From IMG/VR virus record IMGVR_UViG_3300020050_013219: a stretch of DNA of 64,000 nucleotides; one strand, given 5' to 3'. Both the position numbers and the translations under genes were made by a program. This document shows, piece by piece, positions 1,207 through 61,274 of this stretch (positions are counted from its first letter, which is position 1; every line of letters begins with the position of its first letter). Source of the DNA: a virus (lineage: Duplodnaviria > Heunggongvirae > Uroviricota > Caudoviricetes). The notes under the pieces are model-generated. The model had not been told where the DNA came from. It saw only the letters and a program-made list of their open reading frames with translations, and did not search any database.

Positions 1207-2184
1207 TTAATATTTATTCCAATCAAGGTCATCAGCTTCTTTACCAAAACCATTTCCTCCACTGGCTATTTTTTTATTGGAGGTTTGTCCTTTCCAATCT
1301 CTATTTATACCTTTTATAATCTCTGATTTTTGCTGCTTAGAAAATATATCAAAATTAATATCTTCATCTTGAATCATTAAGTGTAAAGCAGCAATCAATT
1401 TAGGAGCTTTTTTATTATCTGCCAAAGCTTCTCCAACTCTTTTCAATATGTTAGAACTTTGTTTTCCTGTGTGCATTTCAAGCATTGTATTAACAAGTTC
1501 TTCATTAACATAATCTTTCAATTCTTTATTCCAACCTTGTTCAATCACAGTTTCTTTCATTTGAAGAATCTTTTGGTTAAACTCTTGTACAAAAGCTTTT
1601 CTCTCATTCTCTTGTTTTTCCAAATATTCAGCTTTTCTCTTTTCAACAGAAGATTGTTTATTTTCATTTTCTGCTTTTAATTTCTCATTAGCTTCCGTAA
1701 TAAGTTCATCATTTACTTCCATTGTATTAAGAATGGTGTCAATATGTTTATCTTTCATACCTTGAGCTTTCATTTGACTTTTCAAATATTCTTTTGCTGC
1801 TTCATCTGTTGTAATTTCTGTAACAGTTTCAGGTTCAGCATAAACATGATTAGCAAAGTCTTTAATGCTTGAAATTTTACCTTCTTTTTTCAATCTGATA
1901 GCTTCAAGAATTTCTTCATCTCCAATAGCATCTTCAAGTTTTCTTTCATCTTCAAAGAATTTCAATTTCTTGAAAAGTTCTTCTTCTGTTTCTACATCAG
2001 ATAAAAATTCTGCATCATAACCAAATTCAGATACATAATTTGCCCAATTATTTGGAGTTGTTTCAATTTCATCAGAACCTTCTTGTTCTACAAAATCTTG
2101 ACCTTCAGGAATTTCTTGAGCATCTTTTTCAAAAAAATCATTCTCATCAAAAATTACTTCATTATCGTTGTTGTAATGTTCCAT
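1207..2184 (-). CDS. Scaffolding protein, putative
   Basis: 325 aa, very acidic (E/D-rich) with coiled-coil character, lying between the portal and capsid genes. The call is positional. Confidence 0.5.
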   Translation of the reverse strand: MEHYNNDNEVIFDENDFFEKDAQEIPEGQDFVEQEGSDEIETTPNNWANYVSEFGYDAEFLSDVETEEELFKKLKFFEDERKLEDAIGDEEILEAIRLKKEGKISSIKDFANHVYAEPETVTEITTDEAAKEYLKSQMKAQGMKDKHIDTILNTMEVNDELITEANEKLKAENENKQSSVEKRKAEYLEKQENERKAFVQEFNQKILQMKETVIEQGWNKELKDYVNEELVNTMLEMHTGKQSSNILKRVGEALADNKKAPKLIAALHLMIQDEDINFDIFSKQQKSEIIKGINRDWKGQTSNKKIASGGNGFGKEADDLDWNKY

Positions 2185-4811
2185 TATTTCTTGTTAGTGG
2201 ATTTATTTGCCTTTATACGCTCTTTCTGTAAATCATGTTCTCTATCTTTCTGGTTCTCAATTTGTTTATTTTTTTCCTTAACTTCTTCAAAACTTTGAGA
2301 CCTTGCTTCTGTTATAGCTTTTTGCTTTTCAATGTTAAGTTTTGTTTCACCTTCATTGATTTTTCTTTGCAACTCTCCTGCTTGTAAAGCATCTGAAATA
2401 CCATTATTATCTACGTCAAGTGTTTCTTGGTTTTGATAAACTTTAATATTAGCTATTTCTTTATCAATTTCACCTTTTGCTTCAATGTGTTTTTCTTTCC
2501 ATTGTTCCTGTAAATTAATCAAATCTTTTTGTATTTGAATCATTTCTTTTTGACTTGCTTGTTTCATTTGTTCAACTTTCATTTGTTGTTCCTGTATTTG
2601 AGCATCTCTTGTTTCTCTATCTTTTTGTGCTTTAATAAAATATTTTTGAATTTCATAAGGACTTTCCCCACTTTGCACTGCCAAGAGAAGTTTGCTAAAA
2701 TCAGCAACTGTAAGCATTTGATTTTGAATCATTGCTTGAGATTCTCTTAACATAATATCAAAATATTCTTTTGGATTACTATTGTTAATCATTACACCCA
2801 AATAAGCAAATTCAAGATTTTCAGGTTTAATCCTAAGAACTTCTCTTTGATTTTCACCAAATATATAAGAAAGTCTGTGTTCTCCACCATTTTCAATTTT
2901 ATTCTTTGCCCACTCAATGAAATGATTAACATAACCTGTCATAATTTCTTGCCATATCCAATTGTGTTGTTGAAAAGTAGGGTCAATCATATAACCTGTT
3001 TGTTGCAAAGCTTGTTGATTATCAGTAACATTTCCACTAATCATTTGACTAAGAGCTTGTGGAGAAACTCCTACAATAAGCCCCATTTCAGATTTAATCC
3101 AATTTAACATTTGCATAAGCACTGCAAAGGTTTGTCCAATATCTACTGGAATAACAGCAGGTGCAGGTCTTGTAAGTCCTGGCTTATCTTCAACAAAACT
3201 ATCTTGAATTAAATATCCTTCTTTTCTATATTGAAAGAACTTATTCATTCTTTCTTCAGAAGTATCTCCTAAACCAATTGGAATAGCACTTGGGTCAACG
3301 GGAATTAAATAACCATCCCAACGTTCAGCTAATTGTGCAAGTTTATTAAAAATTACAACATATAAAACATTGTAAGGTTTTAATCTTTCAAATACTGAAA
3401 TTCTTTCCGCATTATAGTTGGATAAGAACTTTCCGTAATAACTAAGTTCATGCTTAAAAGGATTATCGGGATTAATTGGTTGATTTTTAACTTCTCTTAT
3501 TCTTGTATAAAAATTTAAACCAATTCTATACATTTCATATTTTCTTGGCAACCATAACCATTCAACACTTCCACCTTCCCAAAAATAAGTATCAGATTCA
3601 TAGCCCCATTCATTCATTACTTTCTCTTTTACAGCACTTTTTGGGGTATCAAAACTTTCATCTACAAATTCCAATATTTCTTTTCCCATGATGTCAGTTG
3701 TTCTTAAAAAACCAATTTTCTTAAAAGCAACAAATTCAAAATGAGTAACAGGAATTAATCTTTCTCTGTGAACATAAGGAAGCTCTCCATAACCATATTG
3801 TTGTTTTTCATCATAATAAGGTAATCCTTTGGTTATAAGAGCTTGTGTGTCCCATTCAGGATATTTTGTATGATGATGAGTTCTAATATCAATAGTAGGA
3901 CTTTCTATATTGTGAGAGTATAAACCATATCTTGCAAGCTCATCATTTTCAAGTTCTGGAAATTCCAATTTTAGTTGAAATAAAGTAAACATTTTAGTAT
4001 AAGCTGCCCACATACTTTGTTGGACATATTCATGTTCAGGAGATTTGTGGCAAAGAAAATAAGGTAAATTTACTCTTTCAAATTCAGTTCCATCATAAGT
4101 ATCTACAATTCTAACTATTTCTCCATCATTTAATATTACATCTTCAAAACAATCATTCTTTACTTTTTTGTAACGAACTGATGTGTTATAAGTTGCATAT
4201 TGAATAATTTTATTTGCTAAGATTTCTAATTCACTCATAAATCCTTCTATTTGAGGTATTGGATATTGAGCTTTTAGTTCTTGTTCCATTGCTTGAACTT
4301 GCTTTTCAATTTCTGCAAGCTGTTCAGGTGCTATTTGACCAGATTGGTCTTGAGCTGCCATAATTAACTCTTGATATTTTTGATTTGACTGTAATACTGC
4401 TGAAAGTTGTCCTTCAACATATTGAGCTATTTGATTTTTTAATTGCTCATCCTTTTCAACCATTGCTTGTTGGGTGAGAAGTAAAGGAGTATAAGTATCA
4501 TTTCTTCTAAGCTCAACTGTTTTTAGATAATTAACAATTACATTAATAATGTTTACTTTAAAAAAAGTAGTATCAAAATTAGTTTCATCAATACCAAGTT
4601 CATTACAAACATCTTCCCATTCCCCAAAATCAAACTTATCATTTCTGTAAAGATAATTATTGACCATTTTTTGTTGGGCTTCTGTAAGATAATTAGTCAT
4701 TCCTCCAGAAGGTAAATGAAACTCCATTACTCTTTTAAACCAATAATGGTCATTTTCATATTTTTCTGCTTCTGAAAGCCTTAATTCTGGCACTCCTAAG
4801 AAGTAGTCCAT
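2184..4811 (-). CDS. Portal protein, putative
   Basis: 875 aa ORF immediately downstream of TerL on the same strand (ATGA-type overlap). It has a Q/E/K-rich C-terminal coiled-coil extension. The call is by synteny. Confidence 0.5.
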   Translation of the reverse strand: MDYFLGVPELRLSEAEKYENDHYWFKRVMEFHLPSGGMTNYLTEAQQKMVNNYLYRNDKFDFGEWEDVCNELGIDETNFDTTFFKVNIINVIVNYLKTVELRRNDTYTPLLLTQQAMVEKDEQLKNQIAQYVEGQLSAVLQSNQKYQELIMAAQDQSGQIAPEQLAEIEKQVQAMEQELKAQYPIPQIEGFMSELEILANKIIQYATYNTSVRYKKVKNDCFEDVILNDGEIVRIVDTYDGTEFERVNLPYFLCHKSPEHEYVQQSMWAAYTKMFTLFQLKLEFPELENDELARYGLYSHNIESPTIDIRTHHHTKYPEWDTQALITKGLPYYDEKQQYGYGELPYVHRERLIPVTHFEFVAFKKIGFLRTTDIMGKEILEFVDESFDTPKSAVKEKVMNEWGYESDTYFWEGGSVEWLWLPRKYEMYRIGLNFYTRIREVKNQPINPDNPFKHELSYYGKFLSNYNAERISVFERLKPYNVLYVVIFNKLAQLAERWDGYLIPVDPSAIPIGLGDTSEERMNKFFQYRKEGYLIQDSFVEDKPGLTRPAPAVIPVDIGQTFAVLMQMLNWIKSEMGLIVGVSPQALSQMISGNVTDNQQALQQTGYMIDPTFQQHNWIWQEIMTGYVNHFIEWAKNKIENGGEHRLSYIFGENQREVLRIKPENLEFAYLGVMINNSNPKEYFDIMLRESQAMIQNQMLTVADFSKLLLAVQSGESPYEIQKYFIKAQKDRETRDAQIQEQQMKVEQMKQASQKEMIQIQKDLINLQEQWKEKHIEAKGEIDKEIANIKVYQNQETLDVDNNGISDALQAGELQRKINEGETKLNIEKQKAITEARSQSFEEVKEKNKQIENQKDREHDLQKERIKANKSTNKK

Positions 4812-7147
4812 ACTTTACTTTTAGTTTTATATTTTAACTTTTTGTTTTTGAAGGCTGAATAAATGTTGTCATCATTGTTTTTTAATACCTTTTCCTCATA
4901 TTGATTAAACATATTTCTCTTTGCAACCATAATTCCTAACATACTCATTATGCGGTCATAATTTGATTTCTTGCTTTTATCATCTTCATAGTCATAATGA
5001 ATTATTTCACTTAACATACCTAAACTACTTATCCTTTCAACATTTAACTTCTCACCATCTTTGTTTAAAGTAGTAGATTCTTGCAGCCATTCTGCAAAAA
5101 AAGTAAGTAATTCAGGTTTATTTTGTCCAATTAAATAACCATATTTTAATACAAATGAAGCTTTTGCTTTTCCATCATAATTAGTAGGAGTAAATGCTAA
5201 TAACCATTCTTTCTTTTTCTTGGTAAAAAATTCTGTAAGCTTATCATAACCTCTATTACCCTCAAACATTAAGCTTCTTTTAGGGTTTCCATAATAAGCT
5301 AAAAGTAATTCTACTTTTTCATAAAACCTATCTCTTGTGTCTGGCTTACCTGTGTATTCAGCAACTATAACATTACCTGTTTTACCTTCTGTAATATATT
5401 TAGGATTTTTATAAACAAATACACTACCTAAAGATTCACCTAAGTCTTTTTCATCTGAAACATAAGTATCACAACTAAAAAGATATAAATCATCTTTTCC
5501 ATATTCAGGTTCTTCATAAATAATAATATCTGTATCAGTATCTCCTTTTTTATTTTTAGAAGAATTACTACCTTGACTTTCAAAAAAATTATCAATAGTA
5601 ATAGCTTCTTTTGGATTAATAAACTGAACTTCAACTTTTCCATTATTCCAAGATAAATTTACAAATCTTCTAAAATGCTCTTCTTTACCTTGATTTTTCA
5701 ATAATAATAATTGTTGGTATCTTTTTTTGGCACTTTCTTTATTAAAGAATGAACCTTTTCGGGTAAACCACATCTCTTCGACCAGTATAGGATTGTTTAA
5801 ACATTCTTCTCTTAAAGCATCAGGTGTTTCACATTTAGCTCTCCTATTTGCAAAATATTTTAAAACATCTTTTACTAAAGTATTACCATTTTCATCTTTA
5901 AAGTTTCTTTGTACTAATATTGCAGGAAGATAAAGTCCTGTCCTACTTGGAGCTTCTTTAGTATAAGGATTATAAAAAGAGTGCATGTTAAAACTACTTG
6001 GATTTGTAAACATTTCCTTAGCTTCTTGCACAAGTTCTAAATCACTTGAACTTGTACCTGCCATGAGTTGAACACCAAATTTTGTTTTCCTTCTACAAAG
6101 TGCTGAATTTGAACCATGTATGGACTTAATAGATACAGGCATCCTACCACATTCATCTACAATACTTAAAGCCACCCTTGTTGAAGCTGCTGATGTTGTA
6201 GCCCCACGTTTATTTGGAGAATAACTAACTGATTGATAGCTACTTCCAGTTCCCCCAGATTCTCTTCCATTAACTACATATCTATATCTAAAAAAGTTAT
6301 TTGTTTGACCTAAAAAATGTCTTCCTAAAAAAGGAATACTTTCTGCACCTGGAACATGATAAACTCCTAAATCTTCATCTGTAAGTAAATGACTTAAAGC
6401 AACGTCAATTCTTTTATTAATTTCTTTTAAAGGTAAATCTCCTGCTGCACCTGCAATAATATTTGCCGATATTTGTTGTTCTATCCACTCCTTACTAATA
6501 CTTTTAGTACCATCAAAAAGTAATAAATGGCAACATAAACCAATGATACTGAACGTTTTACCTGATGCTCTCGCACCAAAAATCATTAAATCTTCTGCTT
6601 CATTGAACCATTGAGGTTTACCTTTATTAGTATCATGCACATCAAATAAGTAATCTTCAACTGTAATATAAGTCCTAAGCTCTCCATTTGGTTTAAAAAG
6701 ATATTTATACCTTTCAGGGTCTCTTTTAGCTATTATCATTTCATACTGGTCTATAAGAGCTTTATCACAGGAAAATTCTGTTTCTTTTTCAAAGCTTGTG
6801 AAACCATAGCAAGCAGCTATAGCATGTCCAATTAACCATTCTACGTCATCAAGATTAGCTAAACGTGTTACTGTTTCCCTTCTCTCATTTTCCATTTCAA
6901 TTTTAATGTAATTACAGTATAAGTAGGTGGCAGGAGGTAACCAACGCCATCCACCTCCTTGTTTTGCCCATTTACCGTAAATACAATGTTCTATTTCTTG
7001 AATCTTAAATTCCTTATACTGTTTTGTGGAAGGATGATAGTGAGGATGTTTAACTAAATATTGACTTCTATCATGTATATGAATATATTTAAAGTTCTCA
7101 ATAAATTTTAAATCCTCATAAATTTCATTTTCTGTCATAATCAGCAA
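4796..7147 (-). CDS. terL: Terminase large subunit
   Basis: 783 aa with a Walker A motif (GARASGKT in 'MIFGARASGKTFSIIG'). Its size and position at the head of the morphogenesis cluster fit TerL. Confidence 0.65.
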   Translation of the reverse strand: MLIMTENEIYEDLKFIENFKYIHIHDRSQYLVKHPHYHPSTKQYKEFKIQEIEHCIYGKWAKQGGGWRWLPPATYLYCNYIKIEMENERRETVTRLANLDDVEWLIGHAIAACYGFTSFEKETEFSCDKALIDQYEMIIAKRDPERYKYLFKPNGELRTYITVEDYLFDVHDTNKGKPQWFNEAEDLMIFGARASGKTFSIIGLCCHLLLFDGTKSISKEWIEQQISANIIAGAAGDLPLKEINKRIDVALSHLLTDEDLGVYHVPGAESIPFLGRHFLGQTNNFFRYRYVVNGRESGGTGSSYQSVSYSPNKRGATTSAASTRVALSIVDECGRMPVSIKSIHGSNSALCRRKTKFGVQLMAGTSSSDLELVQEAKEMFTNPSSFNMHSFYNPYTKEAPSRTGLYLPAILVQRNFKDENGNTLVKDVLKYFANRRAKCETPDALREECLNNPILVEEMWFTRKGSFFNKESAKKRYQQLLLLKNQGKEEHFRRFVNLSWNNGKVEVQFINPKEAITIDNFFESQGSNSSKNKKGDTDTDIIIYEEPEYGKDDLYLFSCDTYVSDEKDLGESLGSVFVYKNPKYITEGKTGNVIVAEYTGKPDTRDRFYEKVELLLAYYGNPKRSLMFEGNRGYDKLTEFFTKKKKEWLLAFTPTNYDGKAKASFVLKYGYLIGQNKPELLTFFAEWLQESTTLNKDGEKLNVERISSLGMLSEIIHYDYEDDKSKKSNYDRIMSMLGIMVAKRNMFNQYEEKVLKNNDDNIYSAFKNKKLKYKTKSKVWTTS

Positions 7148-10372: not shown

Positions 10373-10516
10373 CTTTTATTAGTTGTTGAATCATTAATTT
10401 CTGCAACATAGACATTTTAGGTTTAGGATAATTTATAATTTCAGGTTCTTCAATTGGCTCATAGCTAATACTACTTACTACTTTCCATTCTTTCTCATTT
10501 TTAAATTTTTTCATAG

Positions 10517-10587
10517 CAGAGCTGCAAGGGATTGAACCTCAATCTTCTGAACCAAAATCAGACGTAATACCTTTATACCACAGCTCA
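10517..10587 (-). tRNA. tRNA-like gene, non-canonical (short D-arm); anticodon loop TTTTGGT gives anticodon UUG (Gln) as the tentative reading
   Basis: Minus-strand sense sequence has a GGTTCAATCC T-arm, a 5-bp anticodon stem TCTGA/TCAGA with a 7-nt loop, and a 6-7 bp acceptor stem GAGCTG(T)/(G)CAGCTC. The D-stem is only about 3 bp. It sits in a 220-nt gap between minus-strand genes. Confidence 0.5.
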
Positions 10588-12732: not shown

Positions 12733-14457
12733 TCAATATGTTAGTGTATTAAGTTTAATAAATTTCTTTACAACTGCTGTACTGTTAAGTAAGCTCTCTG
12801 TTAATGAAGCAGCACTATCTAAAATATTACTTGTTTCAATATCTTCATATTTAAAAGTTCCAAAATTGAATAATTCACTTTCCGTAATATAGTTTCCATA
12901 AATCACATCATAATTTTGATAACCACTTTTACACATAATTTGCAAACCTGTTTTAAGTGCTTCAATTACAGCTTCATATCCCATTAAAATTTCTTTATCT
13001 TTTGGTAAACTCTTTTCAAGCATTGAAGCAATATTAATATCTGTCCAAGCTCCTCCTGGCAACACACCTGATTTAACTGCTGATGAACAAGCCATAAGAG
13101 CATCTTCTACTAAATATTTATTGGTTTGAATTTCTGTAAGAGAATTACCACCTACATAATAAGTACAACTAACTGATTTAAGTCTGTTCATTCTATCTGC
13201 ATGATTTTTAATCAATTGACCATCAGTAACATCTGCTGCATCAAATTCTTCATTAAGCATGTCAATGTAAGCATCTGTAACTTCCTTTGCAGTATTAAAC
13301 TCAAATATACAATTTTCTGCTGTTAAAGTAGCTGATTTAATTTGAAGCTCATAAAACGGGGAAGGACTATCATCTTGTACATCTTTAATATGAGTTTTAT
13401 CTTTTAATATTGCATTTTTCTTCCAAACTAAATCATAGAAGACTTCACCATTTTCAGTGCTTTCCATTAGTTCTGCTGAAGCCATAGCACAAATATCTTC
13501 AAATTGCTTATCAACTTCTTGACCATAAGTATCTACTTTACAAATAAATATTGGTATGTTATAAGTTTTTTCCATTTCTCTTGCCATTTCAACCAATGAA
13601 GGATTTAATTCCTTTACAATAAAAACAACAGGACTTGTATCTCTCATTACCCTACGATGTATATTTTTGGTTAAAACACCAAAAGCATCTAACTTTCCGT
13701 TGTAAAGAATGATTCTTGGATTTTCCAATTTTGGCGGAATATTAACATTCACACTTGGGGATTTAATTGTAATAATATAACCAGTCTTTTTAACTACTTT
13801 ATCTTCATAAGATATTCCATCTTCAAAATCAATACTTATTCCCCAATCTTTCCTGTCAATTTGGCTGTAAAGAGACTTAATGTTATTTGCAACTTTTTCA
13901 TTTCCATGTGAACTTGTGTAAGCTATTTTCCATAAATCTTGAAGTTCTACATTTCTTTTGTTTGTAGCTATGTATGCAAGTGCTTGATTAACAGCAAGTT
14001 CAATACCTTCTTGAATTTTATAAGGATTTGGACTTTTAATCATTTCTTTTATTTTTGTAAAGAAACCTTTGTTTGTGATAAGTCTTTGCAGCATTGTGTG
14101 AATCATAGCAATAGTTCTTGTTGTTCCATCACCTGCAATAAAAGCTGTTTTTTGGGCTGCTTCAAGAATAAGGCTTGCTATAATATTTTCAGCTTCTCCT
14201 TTAAGTGGTAATAAACTCTTTGCCACTGTAACACCATCATTTGTAATTTCTGCTGTATGTCCAAATACAGTTTCTTTTTTAAATATGTGATATTGTCCAT
14301 TAGCTCCCATTGTTGCAATTACAGGAATTGCTAAAGCTTCACTTGCAAGTTTTACTGCTCTTTTAACATCTTTAATAGTAACTTTTCGCCCATCAAAGAT
14401 TTGCTCATTTCCACTGTTCATTAATTTATCATGTATGCTGTTCATTGTTAAGCTCAA
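12733..14457 (-). CDS. GroEL-family chaperonin (phage-encoded Hsp60 homologue)
   Basis: 574 aa. 'ITNDGVTVAKSL' matches GroEL ITKDGVSVAREI, 'AGDGTTRTIAMI' matches AGDGTTTATVLA, and the C-terminal 'VEDALMACSSAVKSGVLPGGAW' matches [21 protein letters not shown]. Confidence 0.85.
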   Translation of the reverse strand: MSLTMNSIHDKLMNSGNEQIFDGRKVTIKDVKRAVKLASEALAIPVIATMGANGQYHIFKKETVFGHTAEITNDGVTVAKSLLPLKGEAENIIASLILEAAQKTAFIAGDGTTRTIAMIHTMLQRLITNKGFFTKIKEMIKSPNPYKIQEGIELAVNQALAYIATNKRNVELQDLWKIAYTSSHGNEKVANNIKSLYSQIDRKDWGISIDFEDGISYEDKVVKKTGYIITIKSPSVNVNIPPKLENPRIILYNGKLDAFGVLTKNIHRRVMRDTSPVVFIVKELNPSLVEMAREMEKTYNIPIFICKVDTYGQEVDKQFEDICAMASAELMESTENGEVFYDLVWKKNAILKDKTHIKDVQDDSPSPFYELQIKSATLTAENCIFEFNTAKEVTDAYIDMLNEEFDAADVTDGQLIKNHADRMNRLKSVSCTYYVGGNSLTEIQTNKYLVEDALMACSSAVKSGVLPGGAWTDINIASMLEKSLPKDKEILMGYEAVIEALKTGLQIMCKSGYQNYDVIYGNYITESELFNFGTFKYEDIETSNILDSAASLTESLLNSTAVVKKFIKLNTLTY

Positions 14458-22544: not shown

Positions 22545-22618
22545 GGGTTTATAGCTCAATTGGTCAGAGCAACTGACTCATAATCAGTAGGTTACAGGTT
22601 CAAGTCCTGTTAAGCCCA
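22545..22618 (+). tRNA. tRNA with CAU anticodon (Met or Ile2-lysidine type; elongator-like, with G1-C72 paired)
   Basis: Full cloverleaf folded by hand: acceptor GGGTTTA/TAAGCCC, D-stem GCTC/GAGC, anticodon stem ACTGA/TCAGT, loop CTCATAA, T-stem ACAGG/CCTGT, T-loop TTCAAGT. 74 nt. Confidence 0.9.
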
Positions 22619-22642
22619 CAAAAGACAATTAGCTGAAATATC

Positions 22643-28296: not shown

Positions 28297-28460
28297 ACTT
28301 AACACAAACAGAAATATATCTAATTTTAGAAGCATTAAATCTTCATTATTTGGGGATTTACAGAGTTCTTGAAAAACCTGATAAATTGGGAGATATTGAG
28401 AAGAAAAATCTCATAGAAACTCAATTGTTATTAACAGAATTAATCAATAAATTAAAATGA
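28293..28460 (+). CDS. Small ORF (55 aa) ATGA-coupled at both ends
   Basis: Hand-translated MNLTQTEIYLILEALNLHYLGIYRVLEKPDKLGDIEKKNLIETQLLLTELINKLK. It fills what would otherwise be a 160-nt gap. Confidence 0.45.
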   Translation: MNLTQTEIYLILEALNLHYLGIYRVLEKPDKLGDIEKKNLIETQLLLTELINKLK

Positions 28461-30592
28461 ATTTTCAAACATTATTAACTAAAATCCAGTCTCAATTTGA
28501 GGCTATGTGTGCCACAGGTAAGTTGTATATTTCTTCAGTTGATGGAGAAACATTATGGCAGACTTATCTTAGTTCCTTTAAACCTAAAAATAATCCTATT
28601 TGGAGGGTAAATTCAGAACATGATGGTAGAAATGACCACAACTTTTTCCGTAGATATGCAAATATCGTTGCAATCAAAAATGGTAAAATTATTTCTATTT
28701 TTGATACAATTGTAGATGAAGAATATGCTGACAGCTATAATGCTTGCAAAGAATTATTGACAAATGCTCCTATTGAAGGTGTATTTGTTCAAACTTACAA
28801 TAAACTTGTGAATCTTCCTTATGAAAAATCTAAGCCTAATCAAGCTTATTACAGATTGGGCATGGAGAAAAATCATGTGCAGTATAAAGCTGATAATGCT
28901 ACTACTTTGGAAAGTGAAAAGGCAAAAGGCAAAGAGATTGGTAAAGTTTATACTTTTTATCATTACAGTATCAATATCCCTAAGCAATTCATTGACTTTT
29001 CAAATAAATCCAAAGAATCAATTTTTGGAGAGTTGCAAACAACGAAACAATTATTTCAAAAAGGTTTGTTAATTCCTTTGGAAACACTTGAACTTGTGAG
29101 AGATTTGATTCAGCAAGGTTCTTTGTATAGAGGAGATATTTATCTTCAAAAAGTTCTTGACTTTATCAAAATAAGAAAAGATTATGAACTTTCCACAAAC
29201 AAAGAGTTTTTCATTCTTGAAAACTTTTGGAAGACACCATTTGCAAGATTTGCCAATGAATTAATAGGAACAACTTGTATTGAACTTGCAGAAGGAAAAG
29301 AAATTAATAAAGTAGTTGATAGTTTCAATTTTAGAGTTGACCCTGTTAATTATCAAAAAGCTAAAAATCTTGAAGTATCTGAAAAAGCAAAAGCAGAAGC
29401 TGAAAAGAAATTGAAAGATTTAGGTTATTTGACTGAAACAAACAATTCTTTCAACAGAAGATATGCTACTATTGAAGATATTAATGTTAGTGAAATAAAA
29501 CATACTAATGTTGATAACACAGTAGAGAAACCACTTGGCTTGTTTGGTAAAGTAGGAGTTCCAACAACAGGATTTAGCAGACATAAAAGAGCTGAATTTG
29601 ATAAAGTAGAAAGTGTTACTATTGACAAGTTTATGAAAGATATTCTTCCGACTGTTACAAGTATGGAAGTATTCTTGGAGAACAAATTCAATAATAATTT
29701 AGTTGCTTTATTTACAGCAGCAGAAGAAGCTAAAAATCTAATGAAATGGAGTAATCCTTTTAGTTGGACTTATGAAAATAACTTGTCAGGAGTTTCTCAA
29801 ATCAAAGAACAGGTTAAGTCCAAAGGTGGGAAAGTTGATGGTGTACTTAGATTTAGCATGATGTGGGCTGATGGTAATGGTGATAACAGTGATTTAGATT
29901 TACATTGCATTGAACCAAGTGGTAATGAAATAATGTTTAATAATAATTACAATAGTAGAACAGGTGGAAATCTTGATATTGACATTACACAACCAAATGG
30001 TAGATTAGCAGTGGAAAATATTACTTTTCCAAATCTAAGCAAAATGCAAGAAGGAGTTTATAAATTATTTGTTCGTCAATTTGCGGCAAGAAACTCAAAA
30101 GGTTTTAAAGCAGAAGTTGAATTTAATGGAGAATTATATTCTTATTCTTATAATCAAGCTGTTTATGGAGATATTCATGTAGCAGAAGTTACTTTAAAAA
30201 ATGGAATATTTTCTATTAAACATATACTTCCTGCAACAGAAGGAGAAGCAGCTAATAGAACTATTTGGAATCTTGAAACAAATCAATTTCATAAAGTAAA
30301 TTTAGTTTGTGAATCTCCTAATCATTGGGGAGATAACAAAATTGGAACAAAAGAATATTTCTTTATGTTACAAGATTGTAAGTCAGACAAAGCCATGAGA
30401 ACATATCATATTGACCAGTTAAATTCTGAACTTATTCCTGAAAGAAAGGCTTTGGAACTTTTAGGTCAATATATGACTATTGAACCTGCTGAAAAACAAT
30501 TAGCAGGATTAGGATTTAATAGTACGGTTAAAGGAGAAGTTATTGTTAAAGTAAAAGGTTCTCATCAAAGAGTATTAAAAATTCAATTATAA
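28457..30592 (+). CDS. Large hypothetical protein (711 aa) with a Gly/Asp-rich motif 'MMWADGNGDNSDLDLHCIEPSGNEIMFNNNYNSRTGGNLDIDITQPNG'
   Basis: Longest ORF of the early region. I could not place the motif in a named family. Confidence 0.75.
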   Translation: MNFQTLLTKIQSQFEAMCATGKLYISSVDGETLWQTYLSSFKPKNNPIWRVNSEHDGRNDHNFFRRYANIVAIKNGKIISIFDTIVDEEYADSYNACKELLTNAPIEGVFVQTYNKLVNLPYEKSKPNQAYYRLGMEKNHVQYKADNATTLESEKAKGKEIGKVYTFYHYSINIPKQFIDFSNKSKESIFGELQTTKQLFQKGLLIPLETLELVRDLIQQGSLYRGDIYLQKVLDFIKIRKDYELSTNKEFFILENFWKTPFARFANELIGTTCIELAEGKEINKVVDSFNFRVDPVNYQKAKNLEVSEKAKAEAEKKLKDLGYLTETNNSFNRRYATIEDINVSEIKHTNVDNTVEKPLGLFGKVGVPTTGFSRHKRAEFDKVESVTIDKFMKDILPTVTSMEVFLENKFNNNLVALFTAAEEAKNLMKWSNPFSWTYENNLSGVSQIKEQVKSKGGKVDGVLRFSMMWADGNGDNSDLDLHCIEPSGNEIMFNNNYNSRTGGNLDIDITQPNGRLAVENITFPNLSKMQEGVYKLFVRQFAARNSKGFKAEVEFNGELYSYSYNQAVYGDIHVAEVTLKNGIFSIKHILPATEGEAANRTIWNLETNQFHKVNLVCESPNHWGDNKIGTKEYFFMLQDCKSDKAMRTYHIDQLNSELIPERKALELLGQYMTIEPAEKQLAGLGFNSTVKGEVIVKVKGSHQRVLKIQL

Positions 30593-36136: not shown

Positions 36137-38020
36137 GTGCAATTTACAACATTCGATATAGAAACAACTTTGACTTGTTTCTTAATTGTAATGAAAGACT
36201 TCCAATCAAAGAAAAAAGTTTGCTATAAGATTTCTAAATATAGAAATGATTATGATACTTTTGTCAGACATTGGAAGTCTTTGGTTAAAAGAGATTATTA
36301 CTTTGTTGGTTTCAATTCACTTAATTTTGATAGTCAAATAATTGAGTTTATATTACAGAAACCAAGAACTTATTCTGAAATTTATGATGAAGCTCAAAGA
36401 GTAATTTCTCTTAGTGATGACCAAAGATATGAAAGTGCTATTCCTGAATGGAAAATGAGTTTTAAAAACATTGATTTGTTTAAAATTTATCACTATGATA
36501 ATAAAAATCGTAGAACTTCATTAAAATGGTGTGAATTTTCAATGAGAATGTCTAACATTGAAGAAATGCCTTTGCCACATGATATTTCTTATACAGAAGA
36601 AGAAGAAATATTAACAGAAGAATACTGTGAGTATGATGTTTTAGCCACAGAGCTTCTGCTTGAAAAATCTCTTGATAAAATCAAATTAAGGTTTGATATT
36701 GGAGAAGTATATGGTCTTAATTTAAACAATGCTAATGACCCCAAAATAGGCTCTGAAATCTTTAAAAAATTGTTGGAAGAAAGCTTGGAAAGAAAAATAG
36801 GTAAAGAAAGAACTTATCGTCCTGTAATTAATGTGAGTGAGATTATTTTACCTTATATAAAGTTTGAAACTCAACAATGTCAATTACTCTTAGCAGCCTT
36901 TAATAAGCTTAAAATTACAACAACTTTAAAACCATTTGAATATTCTATTAAATTAGGTAATATTACTTATGATTTTGGTGTTGGTGGAATACATGGAGCA
37001 ATACAAGGAATACATAAACCAAATGAGAATGAATTATTCAAATCACATGACATAGAAAGTATGTACCCAAATACAGGTATTCAAAATCATTTATATCCTC
37101 AACATTTAGGTGAAAGATTTTGTAGTATTTACAATGAAGTTTATAAAACAAGAGCTAAAGCTAAAAAAGAAGGAAATAAAGCTGTAAATGAAGGTTTAAA
37201 ATTGGCATTAAATGGAAGCTATGGTAAGAGTAATGATGCTTATTCATTCTTTTATGACCCAAAATATACAATGGCAATAACTATTAATGGACAATTATCT
37301 TTATTGATGCTTATTGAAAAACTGTATTTAGCAGGATTTAAGTTTAAAGTTGCCAACACAGATGGTTGTGAATTAATTATTCAAAAAGATAAAGAAGAAC
37401 TTTATTATAGTATTTGCGAAGAATGGGAAAATCTCACAAAATATAAATTAGAACATTTTGATTATTCGATTATGTTTATGAGAGATGTAAATTCTTATCT
37501 TGGAGTTTATACAAATGGTAAAATAAAGAGAAAAGGTATATTTGAAATCTATGAAGATTTTGTTGGAATGAAAGCTTGGAATAAAAATCCTTCATTTCTT
37601 ATCATTCCATTAGCACTGCAAGCATATTTTGTTGAAAAGAAAGATATTAGACAATTTATTAAATCTCACACAAATATTTATGATTTTCTTGGAGCTGTTA
37701 AGAAAAAATCAGATTTTGAATTATATTATTTAGATAAAAAGGGAAATAAACATAATTGCCAAAGAATAACAAGGTATTATCTATCGAATAATGGGTATTA
37801 TCTTATAAAAGACTATGGTATGGTTAAAGATAAAAAAACAGGTAAAATGAAACATGTAACAACAAAAGTAGAAGCAAATAATGGCTGTAAAGTTTTAAAT
37901 AAAGTTACAGATGAAAATGCTTTAAATTATAAAGACCTTGATTACAATTATTATATTTCTGAAACAGAAAAAATAATATTTGAAATTGAAGGTAATCAAC
38001 ACCAAACAACATTATTCTAA
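36137..38020 (+). CDS. Family B DNA polymerase, compact (627 aa), with an N-terminal 3'-5' exonuclease
   Basis: Exo I 'FDIETT' at residues 6-11, Exo II 'NSLNFD', Exo III 'YCEYDVLAT'. Motif A 'DIESMYPN', motif B 'KLALNGSYGK', motif C 'VANTDGCEL'. The annotated start is GTG. Confidence 0.85.
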   Translation: MQFTTFDIETTLTCFLIVMKDFQSKKKVCYKISKYRNDYDTFVRHWKSLVKRDYYFVGFNSLNFDSQIIEFILQKPRTYSEIYDEAQRVISLSDDQRYESAIPEWKMSFKNIDLFKIYHYDNKNRRTSLKWCEFSMRMSNIEEMPLPHDISYTEEEEILTEEYCEYDVLATELLLEKSLDKIKLRFDIGEVYGLNLNNANDPKIGSEIFKKLLEESLERKIGKERTYRPVINVSEIILPYIKFETQQCQLLLAAFNKLKITTTLKPFEYSIKLGNITYDFGVGGIHGAIQGIHKPNENELFKSHDIESMYPNTGIQNHLYPQHLGERFCSIYNEVYKTRAKAKKEGNKAVNEGLKLALNGSYGKSNDAYSFFYDPKYTMAITINGQLSLLMLIEKLYLAGFKFKVANTDGCELIIQKDKEELYYSICEEWENLTKYKLEHFDYSIMFMRDVNSYLGVYTNGKIKRKGIFEIYEDFVGMKAWNKNPSFLIIPLALQAYFVEKKDIRQFIKSHTNIYDFLGAVKKKSDFELYYLDKKGNKHNCQRITRYYLSNNGYYLIKDYGMVKDKKTGKMKHVTTKVEANNGCKVLNKVTDENALNYKDLDYNYYISETEKIIFEIEGNQHQTTLF

Positions 38021-52424: not shown

Positions 52425-52907
52425 ATGAAAGTAAAATTTAAAAAATTACATGAAAGTGCAGTTATCCCTTCTTATGCTAAACAGGGTGATGCAGGAATGG
52501 ATTTAACTGCTATTTCAATTAATGTTACAGATGATTATATTGAATATGGAACAGGTTTAGCTTTTGAAATTCCTGAAAATCATGTTGGTTTATTATTTCC
52601 AAGAAGTAGTATTTCTAAAAAAGATTTATGTCTTGCAAATTCTGTTGGTGTAATTGACAGTGGATATAGGGGAGAAGTTAAACTTAGATTTAAAATACTA
52701 CATGACTTTCAAGAACTTACTGAAAAAGAAGGAAACAGATTGTTTTTCATACAAAATGAAGAAGAAATGTATGCTTATATTTATGATATTGGAGAAAGAA
52801 TTGGTCAATTAATTATATTACCTTATCCAAATATTGAACTTGAAGAAGGAGAATTATCAAATTCTGAAAGAGGAGAAGGTTCATTTGGACATACAAACAG
52901 ATTATGA
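52425..52907 (+). CDS. dut: dUTP diphosphatase (dUTPase)
   Basis: All five dUTPase motifs: 'GDAGMDL', 'PRSSISKK', 'GVIDSGYRGEV', 'GERIGQLIILP' and 'RGEGSFGHT'. Confidence 0.85.
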   Translation: MKVKFKKLHESAVIPSYAKQGDAGMDLTAISINVTDDYIEYGTGLAFEIPENHVGLLFPRSSISKKDLCLANSVGVIDSGYRGEVKLRFKILHDFQELTEKEGNRLFFIQNEEEMYAYIYDIGERIGQLIILPYPNIELEEGELSNSERGEGSFGHTNRL

Positions 52908-58099: not shown

Positions 58100-58951
58100 T
58101 TGTTTATCAAAATAAATATGGAAAAATCAACAATTATGGATAGGATGAAAGAATCCTATGAAATTAGAGCAAGACATTATCTTACAAGAAGGATTCCTGT
58201 CATTATGAGGTTAGATGGGAAAGCTTTTCATACTTACACAAAAGGTCTTAATAAGCCATTTGATGAAGGTTTGATTGAAGATATGCAAAAGACTGCAATT
58301 TATCTTTGTGAGCAAATTCAAGGCTGTAAAGCAGCTTATATTCAATCTGATGAAATAAGTCTTTTGCTAACAGATTATGAAAACTTAAATACAGAAGCTT
58401 GGTTCAATTATGAAGTTCAGAAAATGACTTCTATTAGTGCAAGCTTAGCGACAGGTAAATTTAATCAAATGAGAATTGAAAGTAAATTTAACATTCCAGA
58501 TTGGAATTTATTAAGTTTAGACCATTTATTTGATAATTTTAAATTAGCAAACTTTGATAGTAGAGTTTTCACAATCCCAAAAGATGATGTAGCAAATTAT
58601 TTCCTTGCAAGACAACTTGATGCTGAAAAGAACTCTATTTCAATGCTTGCCCAAAGTATGTATTCTCATAAAGAACTTCATGGTAAACATGGTGGAGAAA
58701 TGCAGGAAATGTGCTTTCAAAAAGGTGTTAATTGGAATGATTTACATTTTAGCAAGAAAAGAGGTAGTTTTATTGTTAAGAATACTTATGTAAATGGGGA
58801 GTTATATGAAATTAGGAATAATAAAATATATCATCCTGAACCTTATGATAGATGGGTAGAATTAACAAAAGAAGATATTATCAGAACTAAATGGGAAGTT
58901 GTAGAAACTCCTATGAGGTTTAATCATTCACATTTTGAAAAATGGCTTTAG
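58100..58951 (+). CDS. Thg1-like protein (tRNA-His guanylyltransferase family; 3'-5' nucleotidyltransferase for tRNA 5'-end repair)
   Basis: 'RIPVIMRLDGKAFHTYTKGLNKPFDEGLIEDM' aligns with Thg1 '[28 protein letters not shown]'. 'AAYIQSDEISLLL' aligns with 'IAYGQSDEYSFVF'. 'TSISASLATGKF' aligns with 'THVASQFASSYVF'. The track start is TTG; the real start is probably the ATG at about 58118. Confidence 0.8.
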   Translation: MFIKINMEKSTIMDRMKESYEIRARHYLTRRIPVIMRLDGKAFHTYTKGLNKPFDEGLIEDMQKTAIYLCEQIQGCKAAYIQSDEISLLLTDYENLNTEAWFNYEVQKMTSISASLATGKFNQMRIESKFNIPDWNLLSLDHLFDNFKLANFDSRVFTIPKDDVANYFLARQLDAEKNSISMLAQSMYSHKELHGKHGGEMQEMCFQKGVNWNDLHFSKKRGSFIVKNTYVNGELYEIRNNKIYHPEPYDRWVELTKEDIIRTKWEVVETPMRFNHSHFEKWL

Positions 58952-59963: not shown

Positions 59964-60658
59964 AATTAATAGATTGGCTTACTTGTAAAGAAGTTTTACT
60001 TCAATATTTTACAGAAGAAGAAATAGAACTTGCTTTACATCAAATAAATTATTCACTTGATGACTTAACTGATATTGAAAACTTTGAGAATGAACCAAAG
60101 TTTTATAAACATTACGAACTTTACAAACAAAATGTAAGGTTTAATAAAAAAGTTTATCAAGGAGAATATTCAAAAGATGTTTCAGTAGTTGGTAATTCTT
60201 ATAGAGTTAAAGCTAAATATCAAGGCTTGAAACATGGAAAACTTGTCCATAAATTATTTTCACATAAATATGAATGGTTTGATAGTTTCTTTACAACTCA
60301 ATTGCTTGACTGTAAGCAGTTTACAGGATTTATTAGACTTAAAGATATTCCTGAAGAATTTAAAGATTTAACAATTAATCAATTATTAGAAGTTGAGAGG
60401 AAAGAAGTAGTAAAATCTCAATGGAAAATATATGAAGTAAATTCTAACCCTGAAATGTACCTTGAAACAGAGTTTGGCAGTTTGTATGTTCCTTATAATT
60501 CCTTGATAGACAGAGACTTTTCAATAATAGAAAACAGAATGACTACTTATGTTAATTGGTATAGTACAGATATTGAAGAGAAAACTGCAATGTTAAAACC
60601 TTTAATTTCAAAAGAAGCTTTAAAACTAAAAGAATATTATGAAAGTAGAATTAATTGA
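59855..60658 (+). CDS. Hypothetical protein (the real start is probably the ATG at about 59960, in ATGA overlap, giving MKLIDWLTCKEV...)
   Basis: Track ORF of 267 aa; the first 35 codons overlap the upstream gene. Confidence 0.5.
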   Translation: MYNNCNFSSFSFQNSRSKRFFFSTSRINLETILADMKLIDWLTCKEVLLQYFTEEEIELALHQINYSLDDLTDIENFENEPKFYKHYELYKQNVRFNKKVYQGEYSKDVSVVGNSYRVKAKYQGLKHGKLVHKLFSHKYEWFDSFFTTQLLDCKQFTGFIRLKDIPEEFKDLTINQLLEVERKEVVKSQWKIYEVNSNPEMYLETEFGSLYVPYNSLIDRDFSIIENRMTTYVNWYSTDIEEKTAMLKPLISKEALKLKEYYESRIN

Positions 60659-61274
60659 TTACATGGGAAGTGATAATGCAGTTTGTCAAGCTGCAAGAGT
60701 ATCATTTAATAAACAATCAAAGGATTACAGTGAAGAACAAAACATTAAATTGTTAAATTATCTTGCTGCACATAATCACTGGTCTCCCTTTTCACATCCA
60801 CAATTACAGTTTAGGATTACAACTCCTATTTATGTGGAAAGACAACTTGTAAAAACAGAAGCAGGTAGAGTATATAATTCAATATCAGGAAGATATGTAG
60901 ATTTTAGTGATACTTATACCACAATATCAGAATGGAGAAAGCAGTCTAAAGATAGTAAACAAGGAAGCGATGGATTAATTGATAACCAAGAACTTGCAAA
61001 TAAAATACAAGAAGAAGTTATTGAGTATTGCAAATTTAGATATAATCAATTGATTGATTTAGGAGTTGCAAAGGAACAAGCAAGAACTGTTTTACCTTTA
61101 AGTTTAAATACAACAATGATTTATACTTGTTCTCTTTATACTTTTATTAGACTTTACAAACAAAGAACAAAACCAGATGCTCAAAAAGAAATTAATGATT
61201 TACTTCAACTTATGATGAAAGAAGTTGTTAAATCAGATTCTTTTCAACATTCTCTTAAGGCTTTTAATTTATGA
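60639..61274 (+). CDS. thyX: ThyX-family (flavin-dependent thymidylate synthase) homologue with a non-canonical RHR motif
   Basis: The N-terminus 'VELIDYMGSDNAVCQAARVSF' matches T. maritima ThyX '[21 protein letters not shown]'. 'LLNYLAAHNHWSPFSH' matches 'LIEYLMKHGHETPFEH'. 'SGRYVDF' is the ThyX S.RY motif, and 'ARTVLPLSLNT' matches 'ARIVLPLNLYT'. The RHR triad reads K-T-E here. Confidence 0.75.
   Translation: MKVELIDYMGSDNAVCQAARVSFNKQSKDYSEEQNIKLLNYLAAHNHWSPFSHPQLQFRITTPIYVERQLVKTEAGRVYNSISGRYVDFSDTYTTISEWRKQSKDSKQGSDGLIDNQELANKIQEEVIEYCKFRYNQLIDLGVAKEQARTVLPLSLNTTMIYTCSLYTFIRLYKQRTKPDAQKEINDLLQLMMKEVVKSDSFQHSLKAFNL

Follow-up and report, generated by a model that had tools for sequence, protein, structure and literature searches.

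Proteins of the ThyX family, the flavin-dependent thymidylate synthases, carry an Arg-His-Arg (RHR) triad that is widely treated as their hallmark, and the locus described here raises the question of what becomes of such an enzyme when the triad is replaced. The gene concerned lies near the end of a 64,000-nucleotide stretch (the window) of IMG/VR virus record IMGVR_UViG_3300020050_013219, from a tailed phage, and its product (211 amino acids (aa), hereafter the query) reads K-T-E at the place of the triad. A first-pass annotation, made by a model from the sequence alone, had noticed this replacement and had offered three readings, namely an inactive protein, an enzyme that uses a shifted Arg, or an enzyme re-tasked, for example, to pyrimidine hypermodification. 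Our comparison of the query with its homologues, with solved structures and with a predicted model suggests that the gene probably encodes a working flavin-dependent thymidylate synthase, converting deoxyuridine monophosphate (dUMP) to deoxythymidine monophosphate (dTMP), in which the clamp for flavin and phosphate has been rebuilt.

By profile and by predicted fold, the open reading frame (ORF) at 60639-61274 encodes a full-length ThyX-family protein. Residues 4-198 of the 211 match Pfam Thy1 (PF02511) with E 7.8e-40 and 137.1 bits against a cut-off of 24.8, the NCBIfam thyX equivalog TIGR02170 is matched with 133.2 bits against a cut-off of 87.9, and phrog_85 with E 2.8e-54, all of which bears out the homology proposed at first pass. 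Using HMMER against solved ThyX sequences, we obtained E 1.2e-30 for the Thermus thermophilus enzyme (6j61) and E 6.7e-23 for that of Thermotoga maritima (1kq4), and hhalign of a profile of the query's own clade (see below) against an alignment of canonical RHR ThyX returned a probability of 100% and E 3.8e-63. An AlphaFold2 monomer model built with 67 clade sequences had a predicted local distance difference test score (pLDDT) of 87.8 and a predicted template modelling score (pTM) of 0.82. When this model was searched with Foldseek, the best PDB matches shown were ThyX structures and the paralogue PolB, with probability 1.00 and a query-based template modelling score (TMq) of 0.72-0.84; against solved ThyX structures TMq was 0.77-0.84. 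The N-terminal 100 residues had been described as lining up almost residue for residue with T. maritima ThyX, and the blocks do align free of gaps, but with an overall identity of ~28-31% that wording was too strong. The S.RY motif and the ARxVLPL segment, also named in the first-pass annotation, are conserved as SGRY (83-86) and ARTVLPL (148-154).

HMMER, a MAFFT alignment of 214 sequences and hhalign agree on a single register, in which K72, T73 and E74 of the query correspond to R78, H79 and R80 of T. maritima, so that the K-T-E reading holds. Unless marked as belonging to the query, alignment positions are numbered below as in T. maritima. The HMMER alignment sets the query segment VERQLVKTEAGRVYNSISGRY opposite the RHR-bearing segment of solved ThyX. 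Between query Q69 and N80 there are 10 enclosed residues compared with 9 in T. maritima, and R68-Q69 on one side and N80...S83-G84-R85-Y86 on the other form unambiguous anchors; no register and no placement of a single insertion or deletion restored an RHR-equivalent triad. Set against the signature RHRX7S (traced to Myllykallio 2002, as applied in PMC2826268), the query reads K72-T73-E74-X8-S83 and keeps nothing of the triad beyond a basic residue in first place, and we do not group it with the canonical RHR ThyX but treat it as a family homologue whose signature is non-canonical.

Canonical ThyX include T. maritima TM0449, T. thermophilus Thy1, Mycobacterium tuberculosis Rv2754c and PBCV-1 A674R. 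Mycobacteriophage L5 gp48, which we had considered as a studied ThyX without the His, was rejected in that role, its signature likewise being canonical RHR. With the canonical enzymes the query shares the fold, the domain and residues R74, Q75, S88, G89, R90, Y91, R147 and R174, as well as H53, S/T55, E144, Q180 and E182. It differs from them in its K-T-x-x-G motif, which has an extra residue and an invariant Gly, and in carrying Arg instead of Asn or His at position 169. Among the residues of the flavin adenine dinucleotide (FAD) site, the equivalents of H53 and S55 are retained and H79, R80 and R165 are lost; further changes relative to T. maritima are R165 to Y167, E58 to S52, H178 to D180 and, across the clade, E86 to Ser.

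The replacement is a property of a whole clade. All 120 of the 120 best homologues in a collection of 5.8 billion proteins from metagenome and sequencing-run assemblies (61-100% identity) read E-R-Q-x-x-K-[T/S]-x-x-G, and in IMG/VR a scan by pattern gave 302 stretches that encode relatives, K-[T/S] being present in 46 of the best 80 (the contigs of these best 80 of the 302 measure 4-170 kb). By neighbour joining, the K-[T/S] sequences group in a single contiguous block that adjoins a viral K-H-Q block (55-60% identity), and on this basis the clade looks monophyletic. It is a large, so far uncultured phage group; when genome contigs were scanned for cells that carry the variant, the one locus returned (37% identity) lay on the contig of a Bacteroidota metagenome-assembled genome, and this locus encodes a canonical RHR ThyX. 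An exact look-up of the window's protein, aimed at longer flanking sequence, gave no record, and cluster look-ups yielded no taxonomy. The surroundings of the relatives on phage contigs of ~100-130 kb include RecA/UvsX, PhoH, a class II ribonucleotide reductase (RNR) and genes of similar kind. As a separate observation, a 101.6-kb contig with a K-T-E ThyX (logan SRR24297605_49035; coordinates 4789-5376, 982-1647) encodes three further proteins within a span of 10 kb, namely a dGTP_diPhyd_N protein (PF18909), a ThiF-family protein and a class II RNR; PF18909 is the (d)GTP diphosphohydrolase domain known from 2-aminoadenine (Z-base) phages.

Within the clade (n = 122) K72 is invariant, query position 73 is Thr in 113 sequences and Ser in 9, and query position 74 is Gln in 72, Glu in 40, Ser in 5 and Ala in 5. 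Equally invariant, in T. maritima numbering, are R28, S30, H53, H59, R74, Q75, K78, G82, N85, S88, G89, R90, Y91, K143, E144, R147, S163, R169, R174, Q180 and E182. The dUMP and catalytic set, consisting of R74, Q75, R78 (as Lys), S88, R90, Y91, R147 and R174, is kept in all 122. In T. maritima the direct dUMP ligands are R78, R80, S88 and R90 (PMC3498832), in M. tuberculosis ThyX the dUMP contacts and the Tyr lid are R95, R199, R87, S105, R107 and Y108, and the equivalents of R74-Q75 are supplied to the dUMP site by the neighbouring subunit in solved ThyX (PMC6514825). With the exception of R80, every dUMP contact named for solved ThyX in these two papers is invariant in the clade, and so are the equivalents of the catalytic residues H53, R174 and Y91.

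Since the query lacks a signature that the literature holds to be strictly conserved, it might be an inactive remnant or a non-catalytic binder of dUMP or flavin. We consider this highly improbable because of the clade-wide conservation, the purifying selection and the invariant dUMP and catalytic residues throughout the sequence: the median pairwise ratio of non-synonymous to synonymous substitution rates (dN/dS) is 0.129 over 252 clade pairs, codons vary synonymously at K72, T73 and G76 (Thr is encoded by ACA, ACT and ACG), the ORF is intact and full length in more than 160 distinct sequences, and the score of the query exceeds the curated equivalog cut-off. The inactive option of the first-pass annotation is contradicted by these data.

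The same annotation had hinted at a shifted Arg, and the nearest candidate was R77 of the KTEAGR segment. R77 is present if and only if query position 74 is Glu (44 of 44 in the clade, never apart), while Gln, Ala or Ser at 74 pairs with Val, Cys or Ile at 77, and one of these three residues, mostly Val, occupies query position 77 in most of the clade. E74 and R77 probably form a local i/i+3 ion pair in the motif loop that adds no net charge, and R77 was rejected as a shifted catalytic Arg. The general idea of a shifted Arg fared better, as a different residue, R171, tracks the loss of the His.

ThyX enzymes are homotetramers in which three subunits build each active site, and their conversion of dUMP to dTMP depends on NADPH, CH2H4folate and FAD. 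In solved ThyX, one subunit contributes an RHR triad that forms hydrogen bonds with the adenosine monophosphate (AMP) phosphate, the flavin mononucleotide (FMN) phosphate and the ribityl of FAD, the first Arg of the triad additionally contacts the isoalloxazine and dUMP, and a Ser (S71 in M. tuberculosis) and an Arg (R190 in M. tuberculosis, R165 in Helicobacter pylori) of the second subunit bind the same FAD moieties (PMC6514825). Across 258 sequences, we found that canonical proteins carry R80 and R165 together with E58, and that non-canonical proteins have lost both R80 and R165 and almost always possess exactly one Arg among positions 58, 80, 165 and 169. We take M. tuberculosis S71 and R190 to correspond to T. 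maritima positions 55 and 165, an assignment that rests partly on the M. tuberculosis sequence and is consistent with that of L5 gp48. Non-canonical proteins carry their lone Arg at position 58, in which case 169 is His or Asn, or else at 169 itself; each of the two sites is one turn away from an FAD ligand, 58 from 55 and 169 from 165 (i, i+4). In the AlphaFold2 model Y167 (position 165), R171 (position 169) and R176 (position 174) of the query lie on a single predicted helix, 166-176.

The occurrence of R169 tracks the loss of His79. Wherever position 79 is Ser or Thr, R169 is present (163/163, a set that takes in about six independent Ser lineages), compared with 32 of the 95 sequences that have other residues at 79. 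In the immediate sister group of the clade, K-H-Q goes with R58 and H169, so three changes (H79 to T, R58 to S, H169 to R) appear to have taken place together at the base of the clade. These patterns point to R171 as the residue that would provide the guanidinium formerly contributed by R80/R165 and would thereby render the His dispensable.

In the working synthase that we favour, the enzyme would supply thymidylate for the replication of an AT-rich tailed phage, acting downstream of the phage dUTPase. The first basic residue of the clamp is kept as Lys (K72), and in place of the His stands T73, or Ser in some members, whose hydroxyl could retain a hydrogen bond to the phosphate. The third Arg is gone, replaced by E74 in its pair with R77, as is the second-subunit FAD ligand R165 (now Y167), and the pocket for the flavin/nucleotide phosphates would receive its missing guanidinium from the new invariant R171, one helical turn on. 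A second covarying pair was seen at positions 89 and 143, where S-G-R-Y occurs with R/K143 (23 sequences) and S-R-R-Y with Pro143 (56 sequences). The query clade has the first of these combinations, with G89 and K143 (query G84 and K145), and resembles in this respect, and in its 'RKQSKxxKQGS' loop, the Thermus and Bacteroidota type with G89 and K/R143. The side chain of PBCV-1 Gln89 has been reported to extend into the dUMP phosphate pocket, so the 89/143 pair may represent another relocated phosphate-binding Arg.

The same substitutions could instead signify altered flavin handling, either in a dUMP methylase to which FAD binds weakly or for a short time, in the manner of a substrate and not of a prosthetic group, or in one that prefers FMN or another flavin. 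Three of the four side chains formed by the RHR triad and R165, which bind the AMP and FMN phosphates and the ribityl, are absent, a single Arg (R171) stands in place of two, and E58 and H178 have changed as well (S52, D180). On the other hand, H53, S/T55, N85 and the first basic residue are kept, no feature specific to FMN was seen in the sequence, and one Arg among positions 58/80/165/169 is the rule in hundreds of phage ThyX that keep the His, where it seems to suffice. We therefore regard altered flavin handling as unlikely.

Several points weigh against a working synthase with a relocated Arg. Without H79 and R80 the active site departs substantially from the canonical one, R80 being a dUMP ligand and RHR the main clamp for the FAD phosphates. 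Every solved ThyX that matched has the canonical RHR, and a non-RHR motif was found in none of the matching PDB ThyX sequences. We found no assay of any non-RHR ThyX, be it K-[T/S] or of the K-H-x-x-G phage type, in the searchable literature, and a full-text search, with subscription papers outside it, likewise returned no description of a K-H-x-x-G or K-[T/S]-x-x-G ThyX. The motif loop (query residues 71-90) is the region of lowest confidence in the model, with a pLDDT of 54-63, and that R171 would reach into the phosphate pocket is deduced from helix periodicity and covariation. The covariation was judged on a neighbour-joining tree without support values, and shared ancestry can inflate it. 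Moreover, the window represents 64 kb of a 99-kb contig, and a second thymidylate synthase may lie in the other ~35 kb.

Relaxed signatures extend well beyond the clade. The closest cultured-phage proteins (39-45% identity), from Pelagibacter phage Mosig, Pseudomonas phage PA11, Vibrio phage VH-8 and podophage Lau218, read K-H-Q-V-G or K-H-K-I-G, and 150 representatives at 50% identity follow the motif [K/R]-[H, sometimes S/T/Y]-x-[V/I]-G, with a hypervariable third position (Q, T, R, K, V, M, N and others). Outside the K-[T/S] clade, a change of His to Ser arises about six further times in the neighbour-joining tree; when two Ser-type representatives were used as tblastn queries, no close relative in a cultured phage came up. 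The K-H-x-[V/I]-G phage ThyX, which are annotated as thymidylate synthases, share with the query Lys78, a variable position 80, Gly82 with the insertion and the 'HWSPF' segment, and the Mosig-like ones among them also carry R169. They keep His79, which the query lacks, and most of their R169-bearing members have S-R-R-Y with P143, whereas the query clade has S-G-R-Y with K143.

A further possibility is that the enzyme has been re-tasked to feed DNA modification, by making 5-hydroxymethyl-dUMP through release or hydration of the exocyclic methylene or by accepting uridine monophosphate (UMP) or deoxycytidine monophosphate (dCMP). The ThyX mechanism runs through an exocyclic methylene that could be diverted, and a changed flavin environment could alter the final reduction step. 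There is also a precedent in PolB (PDB 4p5a/4p5b), a UMP/dUMP methylase of polyoxin nucleoside-antibiotic biosynthesis in Streptomyces carrying a second thyX, and the known example of altered function within the family. PolB has the ThyX fold and is as near to the query model structurally as true ThyX (TMq 0.82-0.84), but its sequence match to the query is weaker (E 1.3e-16 versus 1.2e-30 for Thermus ThyX) and the query belongs to a phage replication module. The Ser found in the clade in place of E86 might be read in the same direction, yet position 86 is variable in validated ThyX (Gln in M. tuberculosis, Val in H. pylori; PMC6514825). The uracil-recognising residues R85 and R176 of the query are invariant together with S83 and Y86, which disfavours a cytosine substrate, and the sister K-H-Q proteins (55-60% identity) occupy the same types of contig. 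A screen of ~60 window ORFs against Pfam or PHROGs turned up no modification gene such as a kinase, glycosyltransferase or amidoligase, a weak negative as many ORFs are unannotated, and none was seen among the called genes of two related contigs with precomputed Pfam matches.

A re-tasked enzyme would also leave the phage dependent on its host for dTMP, as no other thymidylate synthase was seen in the window; here, tblastn with Escherichia coli ThyA as query detected nothing ThyA-like in the 64 kb. Taken together, we judge re-tasking to be quite improbable. The pyrimidine hypermodification suggested at first pass found no support, given that the uracil-recognising Arg are intact, the screened ORFs yielded no modification genes and the relatives sit in ordinary replication and nucleotide-metabolism modules.

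Phage ThyA-family hydroxymethylases and methylases acting on dUMP or dCMP, whose fold is unrelated to that of ThyX, are a documented route to precursors of modified pyrimidines. The sole ThyA-family gene that we saw, at 899-1678 of a related contig (L012, IMGVR_UViG_3300044644_000765), accompanies a K-T-Q ThyX 6 kb downstream instead of replacing it. Its product is 34% identical to E. coli ThyA and reads 'GLPYD' where the E. coli enzyme reads 'GLPFN', with Asp in place of N177, a replacement that we take to be the signature of dCMP-specific hydroxymethylases and methylases. This Asp would leave ThyX as the dTMP source of that phage and suggests a division of labour, with ThyX used for dTMP and the ThyA homologue for cytosine; the phage may modify cytosine.

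The loss of the motif is real, abundant and mechanistically suggestive, and an ordinary thymidylate synthase is still the most likely outcome. RHRX7S has been regarded as defining the family, and across much of phage ThyX diversity a looser [K/R]-[H/S/T]-x-x-G takes its place; one large clade, from uncultured phages, has lost the His entirely, a loss apparently enabled by an Arg relocated to position 169. The clade offers a concrete case in which the rewiring of an active site can be tested, and the enzyme concerned is a target of antibiotics. By itself, loss of the motif points neither to new chemistry nor to modified DNA. One ThyX phylogeny dropped sequences in which over two dissimilar residues departed from RHRX7S (PMC2826268). 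A filter of this type would remove the K-[T/S] clade, and motif-based filters undercount viral thymidylate synthases. Should flavin use be altered after all or the product diverted, the clade would constitute a second functional class within the ThyX fold, with a loose or exchangeable flavin, with FMN, or with a product such as 5-hydroxymethyl-dUMP; we think this doubtful.

Features of the window and of the ThyX-family gene. Residues are numbered as in the query unless T. maritima is named.
Feature	Position	Strand	Remarks
Portal	2184-4811	-	minus-strand arm
Large terminase	4796-7147	-	minus-strand arm
tRNA-Gln	10516-10587	-	
GroEL-like chaperonin	12733-14457	-	phrog_5725, E 2e-62; structural and packaging arm
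tRNA-Met	22545-22619	+	
711-aa ORF	28457-30592	+	phrog_1735 end to end, E 4e-182; phage family of unknown function
RNase H		-	minus-strand arm
DNA polymerase	36137-38020	+	plus-strand arm
Primase, DnaB-like helicase, AAA_24 ATPase		+	long plus-strand arm
dUTPase	52425-52907	+	Pfam PF00692, E 3.7e-16
Thg1-like protein	58100-58951	+	Pfam Thg1, E 6.6e-28; 1.7 kb upstream of the ThyX ORF
ThyX-family (Thy1) gene	60639..61274	+	211 aa, ATG start; profiles and predicted fold
R68-Q69	60840..60845	+	T. maritima R74-Q75; dUMP site; clade-invariant; roles from PMC6514825
Codons K72-T73-E74 (aaa aca gaa)	60852..60860	+	place of canonical R78-H79-R80
G76-R77	60864..60869	+	G76 clade-invariant; R77 a one-residue insertion relative to T. 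maritima
S83-G84-R85-Y86	60885..60896	+	T. maritima S88-G89-R90-Y91; dUMP-binding loop and Tyr lid; clade-invariant; PMC6514825, PMC3498832
R171 (aga)	61149..61151	+	T. maritima position 169; candidate relocated phosphate-binding Arg; clade-invariant
R176	61164..61166	+	T. maritima R174 (uracil-binding Arg); clade-invariant

The window is part of an AT-rich tailed-phage genome with a GC content of 27-31%, to which no cultured phage comes near in DNA sequence. The ThyX ORF belongs to a co-directional gene array, overlapping the upstream ORF by 20 nucleotides and the downstream ORF by 4, and a scan for promoters and terminators around it gave results at chance level only. The dUTPase reported at first pass was recovered as a PF00692 match 7.7 kb upstream of the ThyX gene; it is likely to be the supplier of dUMP to ThyX, a partner in the pathway and not part of the enzyme. 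A stretch of ~200 nucleotides in the dUTPase gene, 73% identical to Tenacibaculum phage Gundel_1, was the only megablast match to cultured phages in the last 19 kb, and together with a GC content of 28% it gives a faint hint of a host among the Flavobacteriia. Thg1 is the tRNA-His guanylyltransferase of the 3'-5' polymerase family; no tRNA-His was detected in the window despite the Thg1-like ORF. The GroEL-like chaperonin of the structural and packaging arm is a gene rarely encoded by phages.

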